From the IMG/VR virus record IMGVR_UViG_2663762939_000001, positions 1 to 8,626 of that record: a stretch of DNA of 8,626 nucleotides; one strand, written 5' to 3'. Source of the stretch: a virus (lineage: Monodnaviria; Loebvirae; Hofneiviricota; Faserviricetes; Tubulavirales; Inoviridae). This document shows, in pieces, positions 16-8,626 of this stretch (position 1 is the stretch's first letter; each line of letters starts with the position of its first letter). Position numbers and translations under genes: made by a program. The notes under the pieces were generated by a model. That model was given only the letters and a program-made list of their open reading frames with translations, had not been told where the DNA came from and ran no database searches.

Positions 16-395
16 AATGGTAAGGATGGCAGAATCTGGCGGGAATCGTTGACACTTGGCGTCAACTGGCTACTATCGATAGTGATTCAAAATCATCCGT
101 TTCTCCAAACGAATCAGAATCAAATGTCTGTCAGCAGTAAGTGAACGGCCTGACCTCACCAATCAGGCCTGTTCATCCAGTTGCAGTTGGTAAATCTGTA
201 CCTGATACATGAAACCTTCCCCAGAAATACAGCCACAATGTCAGATAAGATGAACGCTGCCGCGCCGAATCAGCTATAACGCTCAAAATGAAAACTGTAC
301 GGCTTGGCCAACCCCGGACAGCAACAAAACGAGTTTTGTCACTGACCGGAGTTTACGATAACTTCGTAAGCATTAAATTTTAGCGGCTAAAAAGT

Positions 396-644
396 TCACC
401 ACCACCATGCAAACGGCTTGTTACTGACAGGAAATGCGATACCGTCAGCATCACGACCACGCAAGACCTGATTAAGAAGCTTTCTGACTTCACGGCGCTC
501 TGGCCGGGTCATCATCATATTGCGATACCAGGACGGTGATTTATCAAACCACCTAGAACAACTGGTAAAATGTGAACCAACACGACGGTAAGACTTCATG
601 CGACCACCGGGAAGTCGATCGCGCACCCTGCTTTTTACAGACAT
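396..644 (-). CDS. Hypothetical small basic protein (82 aa, Arg/Lys/Trp-rich), function unknown
   Basis: ATG at 644..642 preceded on the minus strand by AGAGG and a 6-nt spacer (plus 645-656). The protein is strongly basic with no motif I recognise. It sits between gIV and the dif-like end. Confidence 0.4.
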   Translation of the reverse strand: MSVKSRVRDRLPGGRMKSYRRVGSHFTSCSRWFDKSPSWYRNMMMTRPERREVRKLLNQVLRGRDADGIAFPVSNKPFAWWW

Positions 645-794
645 AAAAAACCTCTAATTAATTGAATCACCTAGAAGATGTCTTTCTGTTCATATCCTGT
701 CAGTTTTAAGGCCATATAGAGGCTCCGTGGTGAAACGTAAAATCCGGCTCTTGATGTGGCCATACCGGGGCTTAACGCACCCGCCACGGCCCCA

Positions 795-2060
795 TCAAAG
801 CGTGCGAATAATATGAGCGGTCAGCAGAACATACATAATGCGTTGCTCATTACTGTCAGCTTTACTCCTGAAAAGCCAGCCAATCACCGGAATTTTACTG
901 ATAAACGGTACAGAACGGTCAGCATTGCTGGATGATGAATCAATCAGCCCACCAAGTAAGAGCGTCTGGCCATCCTTAATCTGAACTGTTGTCTGTATCT
1001 GACGCTGGTTCGTAATAATATCAGATGCCTGGTCATCGTTGCTGATGGAATCAGCGCGGGTATCAATAGTAAGTACAAGCTGGCCGTTCCCCATAACAAC
1101 AGGCGTCACCTTCAAAGATACGCCAACATCATGACGTTCAATGGTCTGAAACGGATTATTTACCCCGGCAGATTCACCCGTAACTTTACCCGTGATAAAG
1201 GGTACATTTTTACCAACAGAAATATAGCCTGTCTGACCAGACTGGGTAAGAATCCGGGGCGTTGAAATCACCTTAGACCGGGAGTTACTCTGCACCGCAC
1301 GCAGGGATACGGCCAGAACATTACCATCAAAAATGCCAAAAGAGCCGCCGGCAGTCGACAATGCGCTACCCAATGCTGAAGTATTAAAGCCCCCTGCTAC
1401 TTTATGCCCGGATGCAGAACCGGCTGCAAACGACAAATCAACACCATCCGACAGACTGGTTTCAAACATCAGCGACTGAATCAATACTTGGTCACGGGCA
1501 ACATCCACAGAATTGATAAAATCGGACAGAACCGGCAGCAGCTCGTCAGGAGCAGAAACAATCAGCGAGTTATTACCTGGATAATCCACGACATTACCAC
1601 CGCCATTAGAATCAAGATAAATTTTAACCAGTTGCTGAACATCGGACGATCTAACTTTTGTCAGCTTAAAATTTCTGACCGTAAGCGCCACAGGTACTGG
1701 CTGGTAAGATGGCTCAGAAGGAAAAGTATCATAAGACTGGTTATCAGAATCATCGGAACCCGAAACCATCTGCGAAGGTAATTTAGACGGCAAAGAGACT
1801 ACCGCAGGATTGCCAGAAAGCATGACAAACCCGTTAGCATTCAGAACAGACTTAAAGAAATCATCAATATTTGTTGGATTAACATCAGCATTAAATACGG
1901 TTACATTTCCTTTAACATCAGGATTAACAATAACAGGCTTGCCAGTTTTTGAAGAATACCACTGAACAAATGAGCGAACAGATGAATTATTTAAATTAAC
2001 AGTTTCAGCAGAAACGCAGAATGAACAGGCAAATAAAAAAGCAACAATAACAGAGCGCAT
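795..2060 (-). CDS. Secretin, filamentous phage export channel (pIV-like, GspD/PulD secretin family)
   Basis: The C-terminal region (…GGLIDSSSSNADRSVPFISKIPVIGWLFRSKADSNEQ…) resembles a secretin domain. An internal ATG at 2060 gives a signal-peptide-like N-terminus (MRSVIVAFLFACSFCVSA) with AGGAG about 10 nt upstream. The ORF extends to an ATG at 2153, but that start would overlap gI by about 86 nt. Last gene of the Ff-like order. Confidence 0.8.
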   Translation of the reverse strand: MRSVIVAFLFACSFCVSAETVNLNNSSVRSFVQWYSSKTGKPVIVNPDVKGNVTVFNADVNPTNIDDFFKSVLNANGFVMLSGNPAVVSLPSKLPSQMVSGSDDSDNQSYDTFPSEPSYQPVPVALTVRNFKLTKVRSSDVQQLVKIYLDSNGGGNVVDYPGNNSLIVSAPDELLPVLSDFINSVDVARDQVLIQSLMFETSLSDGVDLSFAAGSASGHKVAGGFNTSALGSALSTAGGSFGIFDGNVLAVSLRAVQSNSRSKVISTPRILTQSGQTGYISVGKNVPFITGKVTGESAGVNNPFQTIERHDVGVSLKVTPVVMGNGQLVLTIDTRADSISNDDQASDIITNQRQIQTTVQIKDGQTLLLGGLIDSSSSNADRSVPFISKIPVIGWLFRSKADSNEQRIMYVLLTAHIIRTL

Positions 2061-2067
2061 AATAATA

Positions 2068-3162
2068 TTACTCCTGACAGGTAACAGTCTGTAAATAACG
2101 GCCTTTTCTAATAACAATACGACAGGCATCTTTAATATCAACGAAATAACCATCTTTAATCAAATCAAAATACTGATATTTCATACCTTTAGCATCAACA
2201 AACGTAACGGAAACGTCAAAGCCAAGTTGTGAAAAAGAATTAATAGAAAGTCGGGGTAAGTCACTGGACGAATCAGGCGTTACCGCCCTCGCCTGTTCAG
2301 CATAAGCAGATTTAATAGCTGAGATTTCATCAACATTCTTTCCAGACTGGAGCCAGAAACCAAGCCCAAGCCCCAGCGCCAAAAAAGAAAGCATTAATAT
2401 AAGACGGTTCGATTTGCGAAAATAAATTTTAGTGAGGCGCATATAATAATTAAATCCTCTGTGAACAGAAAATTGACCGTGCGTGATAAATGGTGGTAAA
2501 AGCGAAAATGCGCCATGAGGATAATTATCTGTGAACGCTTGTTTGGTATTGTAAGCAGAATAAAGAGATTTTCCTGTATATATCCATTTATCAACAGTGA
2601 TTGAATTAACATTATCACCATATTTGACAATGCCAAAGTGTACCTTTGGTAAAGAAAATCGAGCCCCTGAAACCAAATTCATAATGGAGCCAACAAAAGG
2701 AATGTTTAATTTATCTGAACGGCGACAATAAACAACATGCTCAGCAAGCGCCAGACGAGCTTGCTTATCCATTATCGAAATATCCTGAATCAAAAATATA
2801 ATATCCCAGCCTAATTTTCTGGCATGTAAAAACCAGTCAATAACAGGTTGTCTGTCTTTATCACCCCATGAGCGGGAATTAAACCAAGTACCACATTCAT
2901 CAAGTACAAGGAGGCCATTACGGGATTCATCGTAAGATGTATTCCCAATACCAATAGCAAGTAAATCATTTAATGAAGGCTTGTCAGGAACGCGAATAAC
3001 GCGCGTTTTTTTCGCATAACGCCCAACCATAGGCATATTATGCAATTTAAGGTCAAGATTAGTGGCAACAGGACAACCCTTAGCAAGTCTTTCCTGTATT
3101 CTGGAAACACTAACAAGTGTCTTGCCTGAGCCTAATTTGCCTGTTACTACATGAACCGCCAT
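2068..3162 (-). CDS. Zot-like assembly ATPase (pI-like, zonula occludens toxin family)
   Basis: N-terminal Walker A motif GKLGSGKT (residues 8-15), a single hydrophobic TM segment (LILMLSFLALGLGLGFWL) and a C-terminal periplasmic-type domain. Size 364 aa and position between gVI and gIV fit pI/Zot. Confidence 0.8.
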   Translation of the reverse strand: MAVHVVTGKLGSGKTLVSVSRIQERLAKGCPVATNLDLKLHNMPMVGRYAKKTRVIRVPDKPSLNDLLAIGIGNTSYDESRNGLLVLDECGTWFNSRSWGDKDRQPVIDWFLHARKLGWDIIFLIQDISIMDKQARLALAEHVVYCRRSDKLNIPFVGSIMNLVSGARFSLPKVHFGIVKYGDNVNSITVDKWIYTGKSLYSAYNTKQAFTDNYPHGAFSLLPPFITHGQFSVHRGFNYYMRLTKIYFRKSNRLILMLSFLALGLGLGFWLQSGKNVDEISAIKSAYAEQARAVTPDSSSDLPRLSINSFSQLGFDVSVTFVDAKGMKYQYFDLIKDGYFVDIKDACRIVIRKGRYLQTVTCQE

Positions 3163-3504
3163 TTAAATCACCCTGTTTGCATAATCAAGAAATTTTTGTT
3201 TTAAATCGAAAACAAAAACACTGATACGAGTAACCATAATAACGTTAACACACGCCTGAAAATGGTCAGGCAATACAGATGCCATTAAATGAGAAAAATC
3301 AGCGGGTAACCCGTTATACATGACCTCAGCAAGATACTGCATTAAAAGCGTAACAGTTGTTGTAATTAGCGCGACCAATGCAACCGCTATTAAACCTGTT
3401 TTGGTTGCAAGCCGAGCTAAAAAACTTGCAACATAGCCAATAAGCAAAGGAACAAGACCAATAAGAAAACGCAACAATGCAGGAATACCTAATAATAAAG
3501 GCAT
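3163..3504 (-). CDS. Minor coat protein, pVI-like (hydrophobic, about 113 aa)
   Basis: Highly hydrophobic protein lying between gIII and gI, as in Ff phages. The ATG at 3504 shares a base with the gIII stop (TGATG) and has GGTGG upstream. A GTG at 3507 is an alternative start. Confidence 0.55.
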   Translation of the reverse strand: MPLLLGIPALLRFLIGLVPLLIGYVASFLARLATKTGLIAVALVALITTTVTLLMQYLAEVMYNGLPADFSHLMASVLPDHFQACVNVIMVTRISVFVFDLKQKFLDYANRVI

Positions 3505-4748
3505 CACTCACCACCTTTACGAAGCAATGAAGTTAAAGAAGTAAAGACATACCAGAACGTAAGGCAATAAAAAACCCATGAAAGAGCATCTTTAATAGTC
3601 AGCAATTTATCGCAACCAATATCAATCTGATAAACCTCTCCGGGAAAAATGATAAAATCAGAACAACCATTACCATTAGGTAAATTGGGCAACATAGCAC
3701 CTTTATTTAAGAAAGCCTCCCATAACGCACCATGAGAATCCTTTGCAATTCCTAATTCAGATTCAGCTAAAGTGGAAGCGCTATCTAATTCAGAATCCCC
3801 CTTCCCATAACGGGAATCACCGCCAGAAGGATCAGCAAAACGTCCGGCTCCGCGAGTAAGGTTATTTATAGCGTCACCAAGACGATTTATATTATTTTTA
3901 GTCTGTTCATCAGCCGACTTTTTATCATCAGATGAGGTGTCTTTTTCTGTTAACTTATCATGAATCTCACTGGCAATTTTAGGTGAAGCACCTTCGATAG
4001 CTGACTGAATATCTCCTTTGGTAATACTTGAGTCATTACCACCGCCAGAACCGCCGCCTGAGTTACCACCGCCTGTATCACCTCCTCCAGTATCACCACC
4101 CCCCGTATCCCCGCCTCCAGTATCACTGCCATCGCCAGCAGGAGAAGAAGGCTTATCTGAAGGATCGGCTACGGTTCCGGTAGGCTTCCATGTCGCAGCA
4201 CAAACAGTGCCATCATTCTGGCAAACAATGACGCCAGTGGCCTCATATTCACAACCGTTATAATAAATATAACGATCACCGTCATAAGAATAGACATTAT
4301 TGAATACACCTTCTTCGGGTGGTTTAGCTTCACAAATCTCTTCAGGCGTAGGCTCGGAAGGTTTTTCATCAGGAATAGATCGTTGAATATCACCTATAAT
4401 ATAAGCGGTTAAAGTCCAGTATTTATCTTTCTGGCCTGGAGAGTCGCTGTAAGTACAAGCGTCAGAAAACACAAGACGGAATTCAGAGTTAGGCCATACT
4501 CCCTCATAAGTTGGTTTAACCTGAGTAAAAACACCCTGAGCACTGTCTTTAGCACCCTGACAAGCAGAAGCCTGCATCGCTGCATCAATATAATAAACAG
4601 TTTGTTTAGCGCCATCTTGGTTGGTTATTTGCTTACTTTCAGCATATGCAGAGCTTTGAAAAGTAGATTTAGTAATGCTTTCCCATGAATCAGCATATGA
4701 AAAAGAAGAAATAAGAATAGCGGAAATGATTAATATATTCCTTTTCAT
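3504..4748 (-). CDS. Adsorption / minor coat protein, pIII-like, with signal peptide and Gly-rich linker
   Basis: Signal-peptide-like N-terminus ([19 protein letters not shown]), Cys-containing N-terminal domains, a (GGGDT)n/GGGS linker at residues ~205-239 and a hydrophobic C-terminal anchor ([15 protein letters not shown]). Follows gVIII as gIII does in Ff phages. Confidence 0.75.
4032..4136 (-). repeat. Tandem 15-nt codon repeat encoding the Gly-rich (GGGDT)x4[12 protein letters not shown] linker inside gIII
   Basis: Direct periodic repeats are visible in the DNA (…ccgcctccagtatcaccacc… units) and in the translation. The plus-strand Pro-rich ORF 4018-4263 is its antisense shadow. Confidence 0.7.
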
Positions 4749-4766
4749 AATAACCCGCTTTAATAA

Positions 4767-4784
4767 AGGGGCACGAATGCCCCT
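4767..4784 (-). terminator. Hairpin between gVIII and gIII (candidate intrinsic terminator/attenuator)
   Basis: Inverted repeat AGGGGCA / TGCCCCT (4767-4773 and 4778-4784) with a 4-nt loop, followed on the coding (minus) strand by a T-rich tract. It sits where Ff phages have a rho-independent terminator after gene VIII. Confidence 0.45.
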
Positions 4785-4793
4785 AAGTGAATT

Positions 4794-5036
4794 TTAAACT
4801 GCTTTGGAAGCGAATTTTTTAAAAATACGAATGGCAAGGCCTGCACCAACCACAGCAACAACGACAGGCCATACTTTACCAATAAGATCATTTGCCTGAG
4901 TCAGCAATGCATCCATTGCCTGACCTGCATAATCAGTCCCGCCTGTAGTTCCATCAGCCGCAAAAGAACTGGCAGAAACAAAAAGAGCTGTTGAAGCTAC
5001 TGCAATTTTAGATTTAACAAAAGACAAAACTTTCAT
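4794..5036 (-). CDS. Major coat protein, pVIII-like
   Basis: 80-aa precursor with a signal peptide (…VSASSFA|ADGTT), an acidic mature N-terminus, a hydrophobic core (VWPVVVAVVGAGLAIRIF) and a basic C-terminus (KKFASKAV). GGAG lies upstream of the ATG at 5036. Confidence 0.8.
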   Translation of the reverse strand: MKVLSFVKSKIAVASTALFVSASSFAADGTTGGTDYAGQAMDALLTQANDLIGKVWPVVVAVVGAGLAIRIFKKFASKAV

Positions 5037-5055
5037 ATAAATAACTCCATTAAGG

Positions 5056-5151
5056 TTACATTAAGCGGTCAGAAAATGATTTAAATGAACCGACCGCATA
5101 GAAAAGGGCAAAACCGAAGGTATAAGCCCCGAAAAAATAAGCTATATACAT
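5056..5151 (-). CDS. Small hydrophobic virion protein, pIX-like (31 aa)
   Basis: Hand translation of the minus strand gives MYIAYFFGAYTFGFALFYAVGSFKSFSDRLM. The ATG overlaps the stop of the upstream small ORF (TAATG). Size and position between gV and gVIII match Ff gVII/gIX. Not in the supplied ORF track because it is too short. Confidence 0.45.
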   Translation of the reverse strand: MYIAYFFGAYTFGFALFYAVGSFKSFSDRLM

Positions 5152-5237
5152 TAACGAAAAACCCCCGCAGTAATTGCGCCGAGGCCAAAAGAGATAACAA
5201 TGCCTGACGCTATTAATATTTGTATAACATCAGCCAT
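5151..5237 (-). CDS. Small hydrophobic virion protein, pVII-like (28 aa)
   Basis: Hand translation gives MADVIQILIASGIVISFGLGAITAGVFR. It starts 2 nt after the gV-like stop and is coupled to the next small ORF through a TAATG overlap. Confidence 0.45.
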   Translation of the reverse strand: MADVIQILIASGIVISFGLGAITAGVFR

Positions 5238-5239
5238 AT

Positions 5240-5557
5240 TTAACCTTTTATTTCAGTGATTCCACCATCAGATGAAATGTTATAAGTTACCCCCTCCCTA
5301 CCTTCCATTGACCATACACGAACATAAACGGGGATCTGAACTAACTTTCCGATAAAGCTGTTAGCCTGATTCATTACACCGGAATTCACCAAAGCTTGTG
5401 ACACACGAATAATAATCTGGTCTTGCTTGGTACCACCAAAGCCATCAGGGGTCTCTAAGCCAATACCAATTTCATTATAATAACCCTGCCCATTAATTTT
5501 ATTACGCTGACGAGCACCAAGCATCTTACCTTTCACGAAAAGACCATAATTAGACAT
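5240..5557 (-). CDS. Putative ssDNA-binding protein (gV-like), assigned by position
   Basis: 105-aa protein directly downstream of the replication initiator, with a strong RBS (AGGAGA, 5-nt spacer). The assignment rests on synteny and size, not on a recognised motif. Confidence 0.5.
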   Translation of the reverse strand: MSNYGLFVKGKMLGARQRNKINGQGYYNEIGIGLETPDGFGGTKQDQIIIRVSQALVNSGVMNQANSFIGKLVQIPVYVRVWSMEGREGVTYNISSDGGITEIKG

Positions 5558-5568
5558 ATCACTCTCCT

Positions 5569-6633
5569 TTAGTGCCAGCTACTGGCATGTGAAATACGGT
5601 TGTAATCGAAAATTAAACCTTTCTCATAAACCCATGATGGAATTTTGGCTGGTTTAGCCTCAAGTGTTCTTACTAATGGAACAATATTATTTGAATCAGG
5701 GGATTCACAATAAAAATTAATATCTATCCCAAAAGACAGTAATTCTTTACGATGCCTGTAAAATGTTGGCTTTGGAAGCATTTCTTTCATATTTGCGCCC
5801 TGCTTCCATAACAAATATGTAGACTGTATTTTTCTTGGGAGATTAATTATCTTTTCATCAGTTAATATAGTATTTTGATTCATTTCTATTCTCCCTACAT
5901 AGTCAGAGAATACTTTATTAGGCGTCTCAATATTCCAGTTTTTACCAAGCGTAAGATTCAAATCAATTAATTCGGTTGTTCTTAATGTTAATTCAATACG
6001 TAATTTATCTTTTGACCAATCCAGTAAACCAGCGTTAACAAATTCATCTGCTATCTGGTGCCCTTTTTTTCCAGATGTATGCTCATCATATTTAGAGTAA
6101 AATTTCAGGCTCCAACGACGGGAGTTTTTTCCCAAATAGACCGTTCCCCCTTTGCCACAGGCGCGACCATGACGAGTTTTTGCTTTAAACTCTGCGGCAT
6201 AAAGCCATGCCCGCACATTTTCCAATGTTGATAATGAATACATGTAATTAATATCAACACGGGAAATCTTATATTGCCCTGTCATTACCTGACGATAGGA
6301 CGGAAGGTCATGGGGAATATGAAGTAATGCCAGTATTCTCGCGTAAGCTGTCAATACCAGTCCTTGCAAATCGTCGGAACCAATAACCGAATGTCCCTGA
6401 AGAAATTTTGACGGATTACCATCAATATAAAGATGTGTTGCCCGGCCTTCGCCATCGGATCCAACTGATCTTACTTTCATTGTAGATTCGTACGAACCGC
6501 GAACAGTCAACCGTTTTACTGTTTCCCACTCCACTGCACCATCAGCATCAACGCTGACGACACTACCAGCCGGTAACGGTTGGTGCGTGCAAGGCAGGAT
6601 TCCAGTAAACCAGTCGATCATAAGTAGCCACAC
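5569..6633 (-). CDS. Rolling-circle replication initiation protein (gII / RstA-like)
   Basis: 354-aa protein at the head of the minus-strand module, resembling phage/plasmid replication initiators. The track start at 6633 is GTG; the first ATG is at 6621 (MIDWFTG…), so the exact start is uncertain. Confidence 0.75.
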   Translation of the reverse strand: MWLLMIDWFTGILPCTHQPLPAGSVVSVDADGAVEWETVKRLTVRGSYESTMKVRSVGSDGEGRATHLYIDGNPSKFLQGHSVIGSDDLQGLVLTAYARILALLHIPHDLPSYRQVMTGQYKISRVDINYMYSLSTLENVRAWLYAAEFKAKTRHGRACGKGGTVYLGKNSRRWSLKFYSKYDEHTSGKKGHQIADEFVNAGLLDWSKDKLRIELTLRTTELIDLNLTLGKNWNIETPNKVFSDYVGRIEMNQNTILTDEKIINLPRKIQSTYLLWKQGANMKEMLPKPTFYRHRKELLSFGIDINFYCESPDSNNIVPLVRTLEAKPAKIPSWVYEKGLIFDYNRISHASSWH

Positions 6634-6792
6634 CCATCAAAATATGTGTCAATAGTCATTTGTGAGCAAATTGAGTGGTCACAATGTAATATGCTCAGAT
6701 CTGACAGTCAATACATTTGCAATGTTTAAATTGTCAGAAATGAGCATCAAATCTAACTATTGAAAAACCACTGTTAAGATGGAGCCAAGTAG
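6634..6792. promoter_or_regulatory. Divergent intergenic control region between gII (minus) and the HTH regulator (plus), with operator-like inverted repeats
   Basis: Imperfect inverted repeat 6691-6707 (atgctcagatctgacag) and 6731-6747 (ttgtcagaaatgagcat), 14 of 17 matching, with a perfect 10-bp palindrome tcagatctga at 6695-6704. Also TTGTGA-N13-TCACAA at 6660-6684. A possible leftward promoter is -35 TTGCTC (plus 6664-6669) and -10 CATATT (plus 6641-6646). GGAG at 6781-6784 precedes the regulator ATG. Confidence 0.5.
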
Positions 6793-7239
6793 ATGGGCAA
6801 CAATGAGCATGATGATATGGCGGACAAGCAGAGAGCAGAACGTATCAAAAAGGTAATTCTGGAAAACTCGACTTATGAAGAACTGGCCGAGAAAACCGGT
6901 ATTAGCGTTAGCACACTGGTCAGAATAGCGTCCGGCAAAACTGAGCCTAAATTCAGTGACATAATTCAGATAGCTAAAATTACGGGTGCAGACTTGAACA
7001 CCCTTGCTTATGGCTATGCTATTGATGTTAAAGAAGAAGCTACTGAAAGGAAGTTAATCACTTCCGCAGACGGTTACACTGATGAAGAAACCACTAACGC
7101 CCACAATTTCATTGTGTGGAACATCAGAACACTGAATAAACAAGATATTCTGGCTCTCTCAAGGCAAGTTTCTGCATTAAGTTCATATACTTACAGTACG
7201 AAAATGTTTATGAAAAAAGTAGTGTCAGGCGAAGATTAA
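6793..7239 (+). CDS. HTH (XRE/Cro-C1 type) transcriptional regulator, candidate phage repressor
   Basis: The N-terminal region (…TYEELAEKTGISVSTLVRIASGKTEPKFSDIIQIAKITGADLNTLAYG) resembles a helix-turn-helix XRE domain, followed by a C-terminal extension of about 70 aa. It is transcribed divergently from gII, like RstR in CTXphi. Confidence 0.75.
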   Translation: MGNNEHDDMADKQRAERIKKVILENSTYEELAEKTGISVSTLVRIASGKTEPKFSDIIQIAKITGADLNTLAYGYAIDVKEEATERKLITSADGYTDEETTNAHNFIVWNIRTLNKQDILALSRQVSALSSYTYSTKMFMKKVVSGED

Positions 7240-7249
7240 AGGGTTTAGC

Positions 7250-7296
7250 AGTCTCAGGAATGAGACTAACGTGCAGTATTACCAACACTGCACGTT
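7250..7296 (+). terminator. Two tandem hairpins downstream of the regulator gene (candidate terminator/attenuator)
   Basis: Stem 7250-7256 / 7261-7267 (agtctca / tgagact) with a 4-nt loop, then stem 7268-7277 / 7287-7296 (aacgtgcagt / actgcacgtt) with a 9-nt loop, followed by cTTTATT. Confidence 0.4.
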
Positions 7297-7338
7297 CTTT
7301 ATTGTGTGAATTTTGAACAGTGAAAAAGGATCAAAAGG

Positions 7339-7761
7339 ATGAGTAGAAATAACGAAACAAGCGGCGTTGAACTGGTTGTCGTGGGCGTATTTGCTTTCTG
7401 TCTGGCAGTTGTTGCCTGGCTAATGAAAACTTTCGATGTTGAATGGCAAACAGCACTGGAAACTGCGCCTGGCCTGATAGTCTGGCTGCTTGTTGTCGGT
7501 GCGGGGATCTTTTTCGGGATCAAAATGGAAACTGGCCTTATTCGCTGGGGTGCTCCACTGGCGATCGCCCTTCTGATTCCGGTATTCAAGCCAATTCTTA
7601 AGGAAGCTGCCGGAGTTCGTGAAACGGGTGGGCTGGTTTTCGATGATATGGTTTCGTGGTATGGAACTGGCTGGGGAATGTCTCTGATGTTCTTCGGGAT
7701 TCTTATTGTCGGATATGGCCTGCTTTATTGGTGGCACAGAAGAAATTCATATTACTGGTAA
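7339..7761 (+). CDS. Small integral membrane protein (140 aa, about 4 predicted TM helices), function unknown
   Basis: Four hydrophobic segments (about residues 10-28, 44-62, 69-83, 112-131) and a Trp/Tyr-rich C-terminus. AAGGA lies about 9 nt upstream of the ATG. The overlapping minus-strand ORFs are low-complexity antisense shadows. Confidence 0.65.
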   Translation: MSRNNETSGVELVVVGVFAFCLAVVAWLMKTFDVEWQTALETAPGLIVWLLVVGAGIFFGIKMETGLIRWGAPLAIALLIPVFKPILKEAAGVRETGGLVFDDMVSWYGTGWGMSLMFFGILIVGYGLLYWWHRRNSYYW

Positions 7762-7789
7762 TCAATAAAACGTAGAAGAGAGGAAACAT

Positions 7790-8065
7790 ATGAAACTGAA
7801 TCCTGAGAAATACAATAGAAACATCACCCTGCTATGTCCTGTGTGCGGAAATACAGAGATGGAACACGAGGAAGAGTCTGAAGTCGTCAGATGTGTAGGC
7901 TGCGGGAAAGAATTTACTAATGATGAATTAATCCAAGAAAACGGGGTGAGTATTGACGCCCATGTAGATGAAATAAAAGAAGAGTTAACAAAAGACATTC
8001 AAAAACAGTTTGGTGACATGCTCAAAAAGGCATTTAAGGGAAGTAAGAATATAAGGATCAAATAA
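7790..8065 (+). CDS. Small zinc-ribbon protein (91 aa; CPVCG…CVGCG), function unknown
   Basis: Two CxxC pairs (C16/C19 and C35/C38) form a putative zinc ribbon, followed by a charged helical tail. Strong RBS (AGAGAGGAAACAT-ATG). The stop overlaps the next gene's start (TAATG). Confidence 0.65.
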   Translation: MKLNPEKYNRNITLLCPVCGNTEMEHEEESEVVRCVGCGKEFTNDELIQENGVSIDAHVDEIKEELTKDIQKQFGDMLKKAFKGSKNIRIK

Positions 8066-8544
8066 TGACAACAAGTGATGCCATCGCTTTAGCTGCGCTT
8101 GTAGTATCGATTTACACTATCATATCGTCAGAAATGAAATCGAGAAAAAGCGATAGAGAACAAAGGGTTATAAAGGATGAGCAAGACAGGTTACGTAAGT
8201 TGCTTCTGGAAAAAGAAACAAAGTCAGCAATTAATGAGATGAAAGCTGAGCTTGGTGCTCGCCTCGTAAAAATAGCCAAAAACAACTATAGGCTCAAGAT
8301 ATTTAATAGAGGGAGGGTTGAGGCTAAAAATATAGAGATTCATTTCCCTGATAACGATGGAAATGAATATCTTTCAATGCATGATGTAGAAGATAAATTT
8401 CCATATGAGGTATTACACCCGCAACATGGGATTGAAATTTTAGCGGGAATAAGCTTTGGAAGTAAAACTAAATACCGAATAAAACTCATATGGGATGACA
8501 ATTATAAAAGAAGAAATGAAGAGGAGTTTTTCATTTCTATATAA
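8065..8544 (+). CDS. N-terminally membrane-anchored protein (159 aa) with charged helical linker and beta-rich C-terminal domain, function unknown
   Basis: N-terminal hydrophobic helix (AIALAALVVSIYTIISS), a Lys/Glu-rich predicted coiled region, then a C-terminal domain. AAGGA RBS with 7-nt spacer. Translationally coupled to the zinc-ribbon gene. Confidence 0.65.
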   Translation: MTTSDAIALAALVVSIYTIISSEMKSRKSDREQRVIKDEQDRLRKLLLEKETKSAINEMKAELGARLVKIAKNNYRLKIFNRGRVEAKNIEIHFPDNDGNEYLSMHDVEDKFPYEVLHPQHGIEILAGISFGSKTKYRIKLIWDDNYKRRNEEEFFISI

Positions 8545-8574
8545 ATTGGTTCGCACAATGACGTTATGCTAAAG

Positions 8575-8612
8575 AGGCCGCTGCGGGATTCGATTTTCGC
8601 AGCGGCCTTTTC
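8575..8612 (+). terminator. GC-rich hairpin plus T-tract (candidate intrinsic terminator), core of a longer imperfect palindrome
   Basis: Stem AGGCCGCTGCG (8575-8585) / CGCAGCGGCCT (8598-8608), 12-nt loop, followed by TTTT (8608-8611). The arms extend imperfectly to 8562-8585 / 8598-8621, 21 of 24 matching. Confidence 0.5.
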
Positions 8613-8626
8613 AACATAACGAGTCG

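Follow-up and report, generated by a model that had tools for sequence, protein, structure and literature searches.

In the filamentous phage CTXphi, which integrates at dif, the repressor RstR, a small protein of XRE type that has no protease domain, is encoded divergently from the replication gene. The heteroimmune alleles of CTXphi are exchanged as a cassette of repressor plus intergenic region, and the rstA promoter is under LexA control. The intergenic region ig-2 of this phage is 138 bp long and contains three RstR sites (PMC4762005). In the CUS-1/YpfPhi family, lysogens of YpfPhi have been reported to possess partial superinfection immunity, YpfPhi contributes to plague virulence, and YPO2273, an RstR-like regulator at the rstR position, has been proposed as the repressor, a role which 'awaits experimental demonstration' (PMC4266046). 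In our study, the 8,626-nucleotide inovirus DNA of IMG/VR record IMGVR_UViG_2663762939_000001 (the window, i.e. the whole stretch analysed) has been examined at the locus comprising the replication gene gII, a divergent gene for a helix-turn-helix (HTH) regulator, and the control region between them. The control region together with the regulator gene is quite probably the immunity (lysogeny-control) cassette of a dif-integrating CUS-1/YpfPhi-type filamentous prophage. Computation provided the sites described below with their statistics and conservation, as well as the way in which they co-vary with the recognition helix of the regulator and the exchange of the cassette.

The regulator of the window is 95% identical to YPO2273 of Y. 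pestis and 93% identical to the UTI89-type counterpart in the E. coli K1 prophage CUS-1, and on this similarity it is regarded as the ortholog of YPO2273. YpfPhi and CUS-1 also share with the window three matching sites and the position of the gene beside gII, with 98% intergenic identity, whereas their morphogenesis and cargo modules differ, no DNA match being found over ~717-5233 or 7763-8543. The likeness to CTXphi is one of organization. As in a CTXphi-type immunity region, a small regulator without a protease domain diverges from the replication gene of a dif-integrating phage, the control region is compact (171 bp, with three predicted sites), the sites lie in silico over the rep promoter, and the cassette is exchanged, as indicated by the comparison with strain E19057 of avian pathogenic E. 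coli (APEC), with at least three site types; the LexA box that provides the SOS input in the rep promoter of CTXphi was not found in the intergenic region. The first-pass annotation had called the locus RstR-like, which holds for gene position and architecture but not for family membership. The regulator scored 21.4 bits against the NCBIfam RstR family NF041951 (phage_RstR; cut-off 80), with only the generic HTH residues 23-71 aligned, and it differs from RstR in its length of 148 amino acids with a conserved C-terminal domain of its own and in its short 14-bp dyads. CTXphi was not returned by a tblastn search against the phage collection.

The operators of phage 434 are 14-bp dyads. As in 434 and P22, the dyads of the window are 14 bp long, their outer bases being conserved and their centre variable, and several of them lie over divergent promoters; unlike in 434 and P22, there is neither an S24 autocleavage domain nor, in the cassette, a separate cro gene, the predicted operators are 39 bp apart instead of adjacent, and the phage is a single-stranded DNA (ssDNA) inovirus. 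The regulator shares the HTH_3 fold of 434 Cro, with which its model aligns at 31-33% identity and a root mean square deviation of 1.4-1.5 Å. With SinR of Bacillus subtilis, an XRE HTH protein that has a short helical multimerisation domain, the modelled protein would share the domain plan only, in which five helices form an N-terminal HTH domain and two more helices make up the C-terminal part; outside the HTH the sequences are unrelated, and a gene for a SinI-like antagonist was not seen in the window. FpsR of the Shewanella phage SW1 (PMC4762005) and Pf4r of the Pseudomonas phage Pf4 (PMC8402870) are further repressors of filamentous phages, their target being the promoter of the replication/structural operon. 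SW1 is unlike the window in its 621-bp intergenic region, its long overlapping 5' untranslated regions and the absence of FpsR from its own promoter (PMC4762005). Sequence similarity of FpsR and Pf4r to the window regulator was not detected.

Operator-like repeats and their co-variation with the regulator

The first-pass annotation had described two related 17-bp inverted elements in the control region, one of them holding a perfect 10-bp palindrome. Both elements are present (6691-6707, ATGCTCAGATCTGACAG; 6731-6747, ATGCTCATTTCTGACAA), the former matching the reverse complement of the latter at 14/17 positions, and the perfect 10-bp palindrome is TCAGATCTGA at 6695-6704. The pair is nevertheless an incomplete description, as the intergenic region contains three 14-bp dyads of the form G-S-TCA-N4-TGA-S-C (predicted operators O1, O2 and O3; Table 1), 39 bp apart, and in addition a half-site at the -10 element of the predicted gII promoter. 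Exact copies of GCTCA-N4-TGAC number three in the 8626-nt window and are all intergenic, at 6655-6667 (-), 6693-6705 (+) and 6733-6745 (-), the TCA-N4-TGA cores being spaced by exactly 39 and 39 bp. With one mismatch allowed, seven matches occur in the window against 1.4 expected, a count reached by 0/200 whole-window shuffles. In a de novo test, any 5-N4-4 word was held three or more times by 16/5000 dinucleotide shuffles of the 171-nt intergenic region (0.3%).

The annotation had further listed TTGTGA-N13-TCACAA, which is indeed present (TTGTGA at 6661-6666 and TCACAA at 6680-6685, with 13 nt between) but is not a conserved inverted repeat. Its left arm lies inside O1, mostly in the variable N4 spacer of that site, and reads TTTATGA in Y. 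pestis and TTCTGA in the relative L012; the repeat is therefore considered incidental.

Ten related cassettes have been collected, and every phage-borne relative of the regulator that was found (10 relatives) lies divergent from an inovirus rep gene. Apart from Y. pestis (L005) and UTI89 (L004), the identity of the regulator to that of the window is 81% in L012, 74% in L010, 62% in L013, 59% in L017, 56% in L014 (Aeromonas), 55% in L019 (Photobacterium) and 47% in L001 (Vibrio cyclitrophicus phage PE002A). L018 is a metagenomic phage, and E. coli APEC E19057 (L002) has an unrelated cassette with a different regulator and different repeats.

Comparison of these loci suggests three types of recognition helix, each with its own half-site. 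In type A, comprising the window, Y. pestis, L012, L013, L014 and L019, the helix SVSTLVRI(A/T)SGK (ISISTLVRITSAK in L013) goes with the half-site GSTCA. In type B (L010, L018 and L001) the helix (N/G)VRTLVRIAT(A/G)K or GSRTLLRIATGK goes with (A/G)GACA, and in type C (L017) the helix SVRTLVRLASGQ goes with TGCCA. The 5-N4-5 geometry is found at aligned positions in all three types. The replication protein does not follow this division: L014 has a Rep_trans/RstB module and yet type A sites, whereas L010 and L002, in which gII is 91% identical to that of the window up to the start codon, have other site types. In the ten cassettes the half-site sequence thus changes as the recognition helix does, independently of the replication protein, and because the site type follows the regulator, the repeats are unlikely to be sites of gII or of the origin.

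Within type A, the individual sites have been retained to different degrees. O1 is kept in Y. pestis, L012, L014 and L019, with changes confined to the N4 spacer or the outermost base. O2 is a perfect 14-bp palindrome in L012 (GGTCAGATCTGACC) and is absent from L013 and L014 in the alignment. The O3 position is a perfect dyad GCTCA-N4-TGAGC in L013 and L014, and GCTCA/GTCA-N4-TGAGC has been preserved where O1 and O3 align in L013, L014 and L019. The column of the lone half-site at 6677-6681 reads TGTCA, GCTCA or AGTCA in type A relatives and GGACA, which is its own half-site type, in L010. The intergenic region of L012 is only 78% identical to that of the window, and the 39/39 spacing of O1-O3 is the same; the differences fall on 0/18 of the TCA/TGA core positions, 3/12 of the N4 positions and, elsewhere, roughly one position in four. 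O1-O3 can thus be read as phylogenetic footprints.

At shorter distance, the intergenic region is 98% identical to those of CUS-1 (UTI89) and YpfPhi (Y. pestis), with 3-4 differences in 171 nt, against 89% for gII, 90% for the regulator gene and 86% for gV. About 18 intergenic differences would be expected at the rate of the flanking genes, and by our own arithmetic the Poisson chance of three or fewer is ~2e-5, which points to strong purifying selection on the intergenic DNA.

The segment 6622-7249, i.e. the intergenic control region together with the regulator gene, behaves in these comparisons as an exchangeable immunity cassette. Against E. coli APEC E19057, homology extends over 259-6621 (91%) and 7250-7767 (95%) with nothing between, which places the break points at 6621/6622 and 7249/7250. 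The segment 6560-7340 is matched by 185 E. coli genomes, 99/185 of them covering at least 80% of the query; others, ERP001, WP9-S17-ESBL-11 and MS 196-1 among them, match it at both query ends only.

Two further conserved elements border on these features. The sequence TGTCAA(T/G)(A/G)G, at 6646-6655 in the window (GTGTCAATAG; minus strand CTATTGACAC), adjoins O1 and is kept in all ten cassettes regardless of operator type or Rep family; in L001, L017 and L019 the rep start codon follows it after a few nt. A hairpin AGTCTCA-GGAA-TGAGACT at 7250-7267 begins exactly at the right edge of the swapped cassette and is kept in L010 and L002, which have other operator types. Despite its resemblance to the type A core it shows no co-variation with the regulator, and it is therefore probably a conserved structural element in its own right. 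Many other E. coli prophages contain matches to the block 7238-7340 as well.

The regulator, the promoters and a proposed mechanism

As the first-pass annotation had proposed, the open reading frame (ORF) at 6793-7239 encodes an XRE-family regulator on the plus strand, divergent from gII on the minus strand. Residues 26-68 match Pfam HTH_3 (PF01381) with 38.6 bits against a cut-off of 23, which assigns the protein to the XRE/Cro-C1 class, and residues 1-147 align with positions 1-140 of the 142 positions of phrog_3557 (E 1.3e-71), of which it is a member. No Peptidase_S24 domain was detected in the regulator by Pfam, and it does not belong to the LexA/lambda cI-type autocleavable class. Membership of the IncP TrbA family (PRK13890) was ruled out at 20.7 bits against a cut-off of 96, with the HTH alone aligned.

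The AlphaFold (AF2) model (predicted local distance difference test 73) shows a five-helix DNA-binding domain at residues 12-73, a poorly defined linker, and helices at 98-111 and 116-145. In a Foldseek search of the PDB, the HTH domain alone matched XRE DNA-binding domains (434 Cro, P22 c2, SinR, DdrO and C.BclI), and the C-terminal helices gave no informative match. On the DNA-binding domains of 434 Cro, P22 c2 and SinR the model superposes with a template modelling score of ~0.8 relative to the target. A PDB sequence search with the family profile returned a single match, 3bs3, to the HTH only.

Further, the C-terminal motif AHNFIVWN-x4-L-x-K-x-DI...R-x-V-x-AL is kept across the alignment of the regulator family. 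When the C-terminal 64 residues were used in an exhaustive search, 10 clusters only were obtained at E <= 0.001, so this domain is specific to the family and provides no functional clue. Eight of the 10 clusters are short proteins, with the domain near residues 82-141 in six of them (~125-200 amino acids) and elsewhere in the remaining pair (107 and 112 amino acids); the last two of the 10 are long multi-stretch proteins of 796 and 1082 amino acids. For the extension beyond the HTH, which covers about 75 residues where 70 had been stated, the annotation had offered either sensing of a signal or oligomerisation. On the model, oligomerisation is the most economical of these, and the two-helix hairpin probably serves this purpose, in the manner of SinR; that it acts as a sensor is conceivable, but nothing was found that supports this.

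Met9 (ATG at 6817) is invariant across the alignment of the regulator family and is the start codon of the plasmid homologs described below; it may be the true or a second start codon of the regulator. An operator-like sequence, GGGCAacaaTGAGC, lies at 6795-6808, matches 9/10 half-site positions and overlaps codons 2-6 of the regulator.

The gene under the predicted control is gII, which is the first gene of the leftward phage operon; its orthologs in RefSeq have 350 amino acids and start at the ATG that corresponds to the 6621 end in the window. A near-consensus minus-strand promoter equivalent to that predicted for gII is the top-scoring match in 10/10 related intergenic regions. O2 fills the spacer of this promoter, the half-site at 6677-6681 abuts the -10 element, and O1 lies in the leader. 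TTGACA at 6653-6648 was considered as a second gII promoter and rejected; it is a perfect -35 hexamer, but a -10 element is missing in every relative. For the regulator, the tentative extended -10 element at 6772-6780 is represented in its alignment column by TG-n-TAnnAT or TAnnAT in the window, L012, L013 and L014 and by TATAAT in L018. This element is just 12 nt from the regulator ATG, and a transcript from it would have almost no leader. The predicted transcription starts are near 6787 (plus strand) for the regulator and near 6676 (minus strand) for gII.

That the expression of the phage genes is controlled by a repressor, as had been suggested at first pass, is favoured by synteny, by the co-variation of helix and half-site, by the cassette exchange and by the purifying selection. 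We infer rather than observe that the regulator binds, in which direction it acts, where transcription starts, in which oligomeric state the protein exists and what the inducing signal is. The 148-amino-acid protein would act as a 434/Cro-type HTH repressor, probably as a dimer or a larger assembly held by the C-terminal hairpin, and would recognise the 14-bp dyads G-(C/G)-TCA-N4-TGA-(C/G)-C. When bound at O2 and at the -10 half-site it would exclude RNA polymerase from the gII promoter, because O2 fills the promoter spacer and the lone half-site abuts the -10 element. O1, situated early in the transcript, could contribute a roadblock or cooperativity in binding, and O3, upstream of the weak promoter of the regulator, would probably serve autoregulation. 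With the gII promoter off, the double-stranded replicative form would stop replicating and the co-oriented gV and coat/assembly genes would remain unexpressed, so that the prophage would stay quiet and the cell would be immune to phages with the same cassette. Induction by DNA damage, a test of which the first-pass annotation had proposed, finds no support in the sequence, as there is neither a LexA box nor an S24 peptidase domain.

Weighing the repressor reading against alternatives

Several points weigh against the repressor reading. No published binding or repression experiment was found for this regulator family. Distances of 39 and 78 bp do not amount to an integral number of helical turns, and simple face-to-face cooperativity is thereby disfavoured. 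A plus-strand -35/-10 promoter for the regulator was not consistently predicted across the relatives, and as the predictions for this promoter do not convince, any autoregulation through O3 is conjectural. At the promoters of the IncP-like plasmids that carry homologs with an identical recognition helix (see below), no type A sites were found, which leaves the assignment of helix to site unconfirmed outside phages. In Y. pestis, moreover, the promoter region of YPO2274 is reportedly bound by RovA, which is also reported to repress YPO2274-2279 (cited in PMC4266046), from which it would follow that a host factor shares the control.

This report on RovA is also the main argument for assigning the sites to a host regulator (RovA/SlyA, CRP or LexA), with the phage HTH protein in another role, for instance activation or control of the rightward cargo genes, and TTGTGA/TCACAA superficially recalls CRP half-sites. 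Yet no CRP-spaced site is present in the intergenic region, and TTAGCAAGCTAA, which we take to be the SlyA consensus (SlyA/RovA), has no match there. For the LexA box CTGT-N8-ACAG the intergenic region has two matches only, each with two mismatches, and the window-wide count of 34 against 29.6 expected is that of chance. Moreover, sites of a host factor would neither vary in step with the recognition helix of the phage protein nor be swapped together with its gene. Control mainly by a host regulator is therefore judged to be very unlikely, and RovA could bind the AT-rich centre at 6712-6731 besides the repressor.

In the Ff phages, the origins of replication lie in intergenic regions and contain repeats. 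The repeats of the window could likewise be imagined as part of an origin instead of operators, being either binding or nicking sites of gII or a hairpin of the viral ssDNA (minus-strand origin or packaging signal), and the viral strand at 6640-6760 does fold into a 57-nt hairpin of O2 and O3 (-16.6 kcal/mol, z = -2.8), which only 2/200 shuffles folded as well. However, this fold is not conserved. The relatives pair different copies, the closest diverged relative L012 gives z = -0.8, and L013 and L014 are without O2 altogether; the hairpin was accordingly discarded as a functional element. Taken with the tracking of the site type by the regulator helix and not by Rep, as seen in L014, L010 and L002, an origin function has little to recommend it and is held to be hardly probable. 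Least credible of all is a chance origin of the repeats in AT-rich intergenic DNA with the regulator acting elsewhere, which we regard as extremely improbable. Only about 9 bases are specified per site, and short two-copy families are often chance matches; but the shuffling results given above, the identical 39/39-bp spacing in L012 despite 22% intergenic divergence and the half-sites kept in the Aeromonas and Photobacterium relatives all speak against it.

The repressor reading is not novel in kind, having already been predicted for the 95%-identical YPO2273 (PMC4266046), and it represents an expected variation on the CTXphi paradigm. The literature search found no paper describing these operators, promoters or cassette types. 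The additions of our study are the map of three operators, the promoter assignment, the cassette boundaries and the types of helix and half-site. The operator map and the helix/half-site types make the published YPO2273 hypothesis directly testable and predict heteroimmune prophages. Prophages of the CUS-1/YpfPhi type occupy dif in pandemic Y. pestis as well as in extraintestinal pathogenic E. coli (UTI89, NC101, APEC).

Plasmid homologs and the phage genome

Homologs of the regulator with ~122 amino acids, ~64% identity and the same C-terminal motif are present on ~41-kb IncP-like conjugative plasmids of E. coli and Salmonella, and their clusters were seen on hundreds of contigs. In the homolog of plasmid L016 and in P0034, P0042, P0061 and P0063, the recognition helix SVSTLVRIASGK is identical to that of the window, and some plasmid copies (P0101 and P0111) have a type B helix. 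One of the IncP-plasmid homologs is WP_021519994.1. It can be speculated that a plasmid repressor acts in trans on the phage operators and that the family consists of orthogonal repressor/operator pairs recoded by a few helix residues, although we consider this rather unlikely. If it were so, a plasmid copy might silence resident CUS-1/YpfPhi-type prophages, or might protect the cells against pilus-dependent filamentous phages as a plasmid-borne phage immunity, and helix positions 38, 40, 45 and 47-49 would recode the half-site among GSTCA, RGACA and TGCCA on a shared 5-N4-5 geometry. The plasmid L016 contains, at 30990-31040, the sequences TAGGACA-TTA-TGTCCT and TAGGACA-TTT-TGTCCTA with N3 spacing. 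These GGACA-N3-TGTCC pairs resemble IncP KorC operators and, since their spacing is N3 and not N4, they are irrelevant to the co-variation argument.

The window is a complete genome of a dif-integrating inovirus of the CUS-1/YpfPhi family, the genes and control elements of which are listed in Table 1. Prophages of ~90% identity adjoin hipBA in many E. coli chromosomes, those of UTI89, NC101 and APEC strains included. In the tandem copies of Y. pestis, the last 83 nt of the window run straight into its first 212 nt; as end and start are contiguous there, the window represents one full phage unit cut at a dif-like site.

Table 1. Predicted and annotated features of the window, with the plasmid homolog of the regulator in the last row
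Feature	Coordinates	Strand	Details
Secretin gene	795-2153	-	
zot/gI	2068-3162	-	
gVI, gIII, gVIII		-	
gV, G5P-type ssDNA-binding protein	5240-5557	-	
gII, replication initiator	5569-6621 (6633 with longer start)	-	Pfam Phage_CRI E 2.9e-73; G2P_X_C E 2e-33
gII-regulator intergenic control region	6622-6792		171 bp, counted from gII ATG
Predicted operator O1	6654-6667		AGTCA-tttg-TGAGC; ~+10 to +23 of predicted gII transcript (leader)
Lone half-site GGTCA	6677-6681		From alignment; beside -10 element and predicted start site of gII promoter
Predicted sigma-70 promoter for gII	6683-6711	-	-35 TTGACT 6711-6706, 17-nt spacer, -10 TACATT 6688-6683
Predicted operator O2	6693-6706		GCTCA-gatc-TGACA; holds 10-bp palindrome; in gII promoter spacer
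Predicted operator O3	6732-6745		TGTCA-gaaa-TGAGC; upstream of regulator gene
Candidate extended -10 for regulator (tentative)	6772-6780	+	TGtTAAGAT
HTH regulator gene	6793-7239	+	148 amino acids; followed by three cargo ORFs on plus strand
Candidate intrinsic terminator after regulator gene	7269-7303	+	9-bp stem ACGTGCAGT/ACTGCACGT, 9-nt loop, then TCTTTATT; read directly from sequence
Plasmid homolog of regulator	L016 (NZ_CP075702.1) 33115-33483		After resolvase gene; plasmids carry trfA, korB and trb genes

The candidate terminator at 7269-7303 had been omitted by the terminator scan, the loop limit of which is 8 nt, and an Rfam scan of the whole window returned no RNA family. The full 28-nt E. 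coli dif was not found in the window with up to three mismatches. Two dif-like sites in inverted orientation are contained in 8548-8626 joined to 1-15. One of them is GGTTCGCACAATGACGTTATGCTAAAG at ~8548-8574; the other spans the junction of the window end and start (reverse complement GGTGCGCATAATGTACGACTCGTTATGTTGAA) and has a perfect XerC arm. Between both sites, at ~8577-8607, lies a GC-rich hairpin, GGCCGCTGCG...CGCAGCGGCC, and the whole arrangement is reminiscent of the folded attP of CTXphi. Of the rightward cargo genes, that at 7339-7761 encodes a predicted membrane protein (phrog_4174), that at 7790-8065 a CxxC zinc-binding protein of the ECs_2282 family (NCBIfam, 65 bits against a cut-off of 37), and that at 8065-8544 matches phrog_6723, a family without known function. 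In gIII, the translation of 4018-4130 shows a glycine-rich tandem repeat, which is the linker of the attachment protein and is typical of inovirus pIII.

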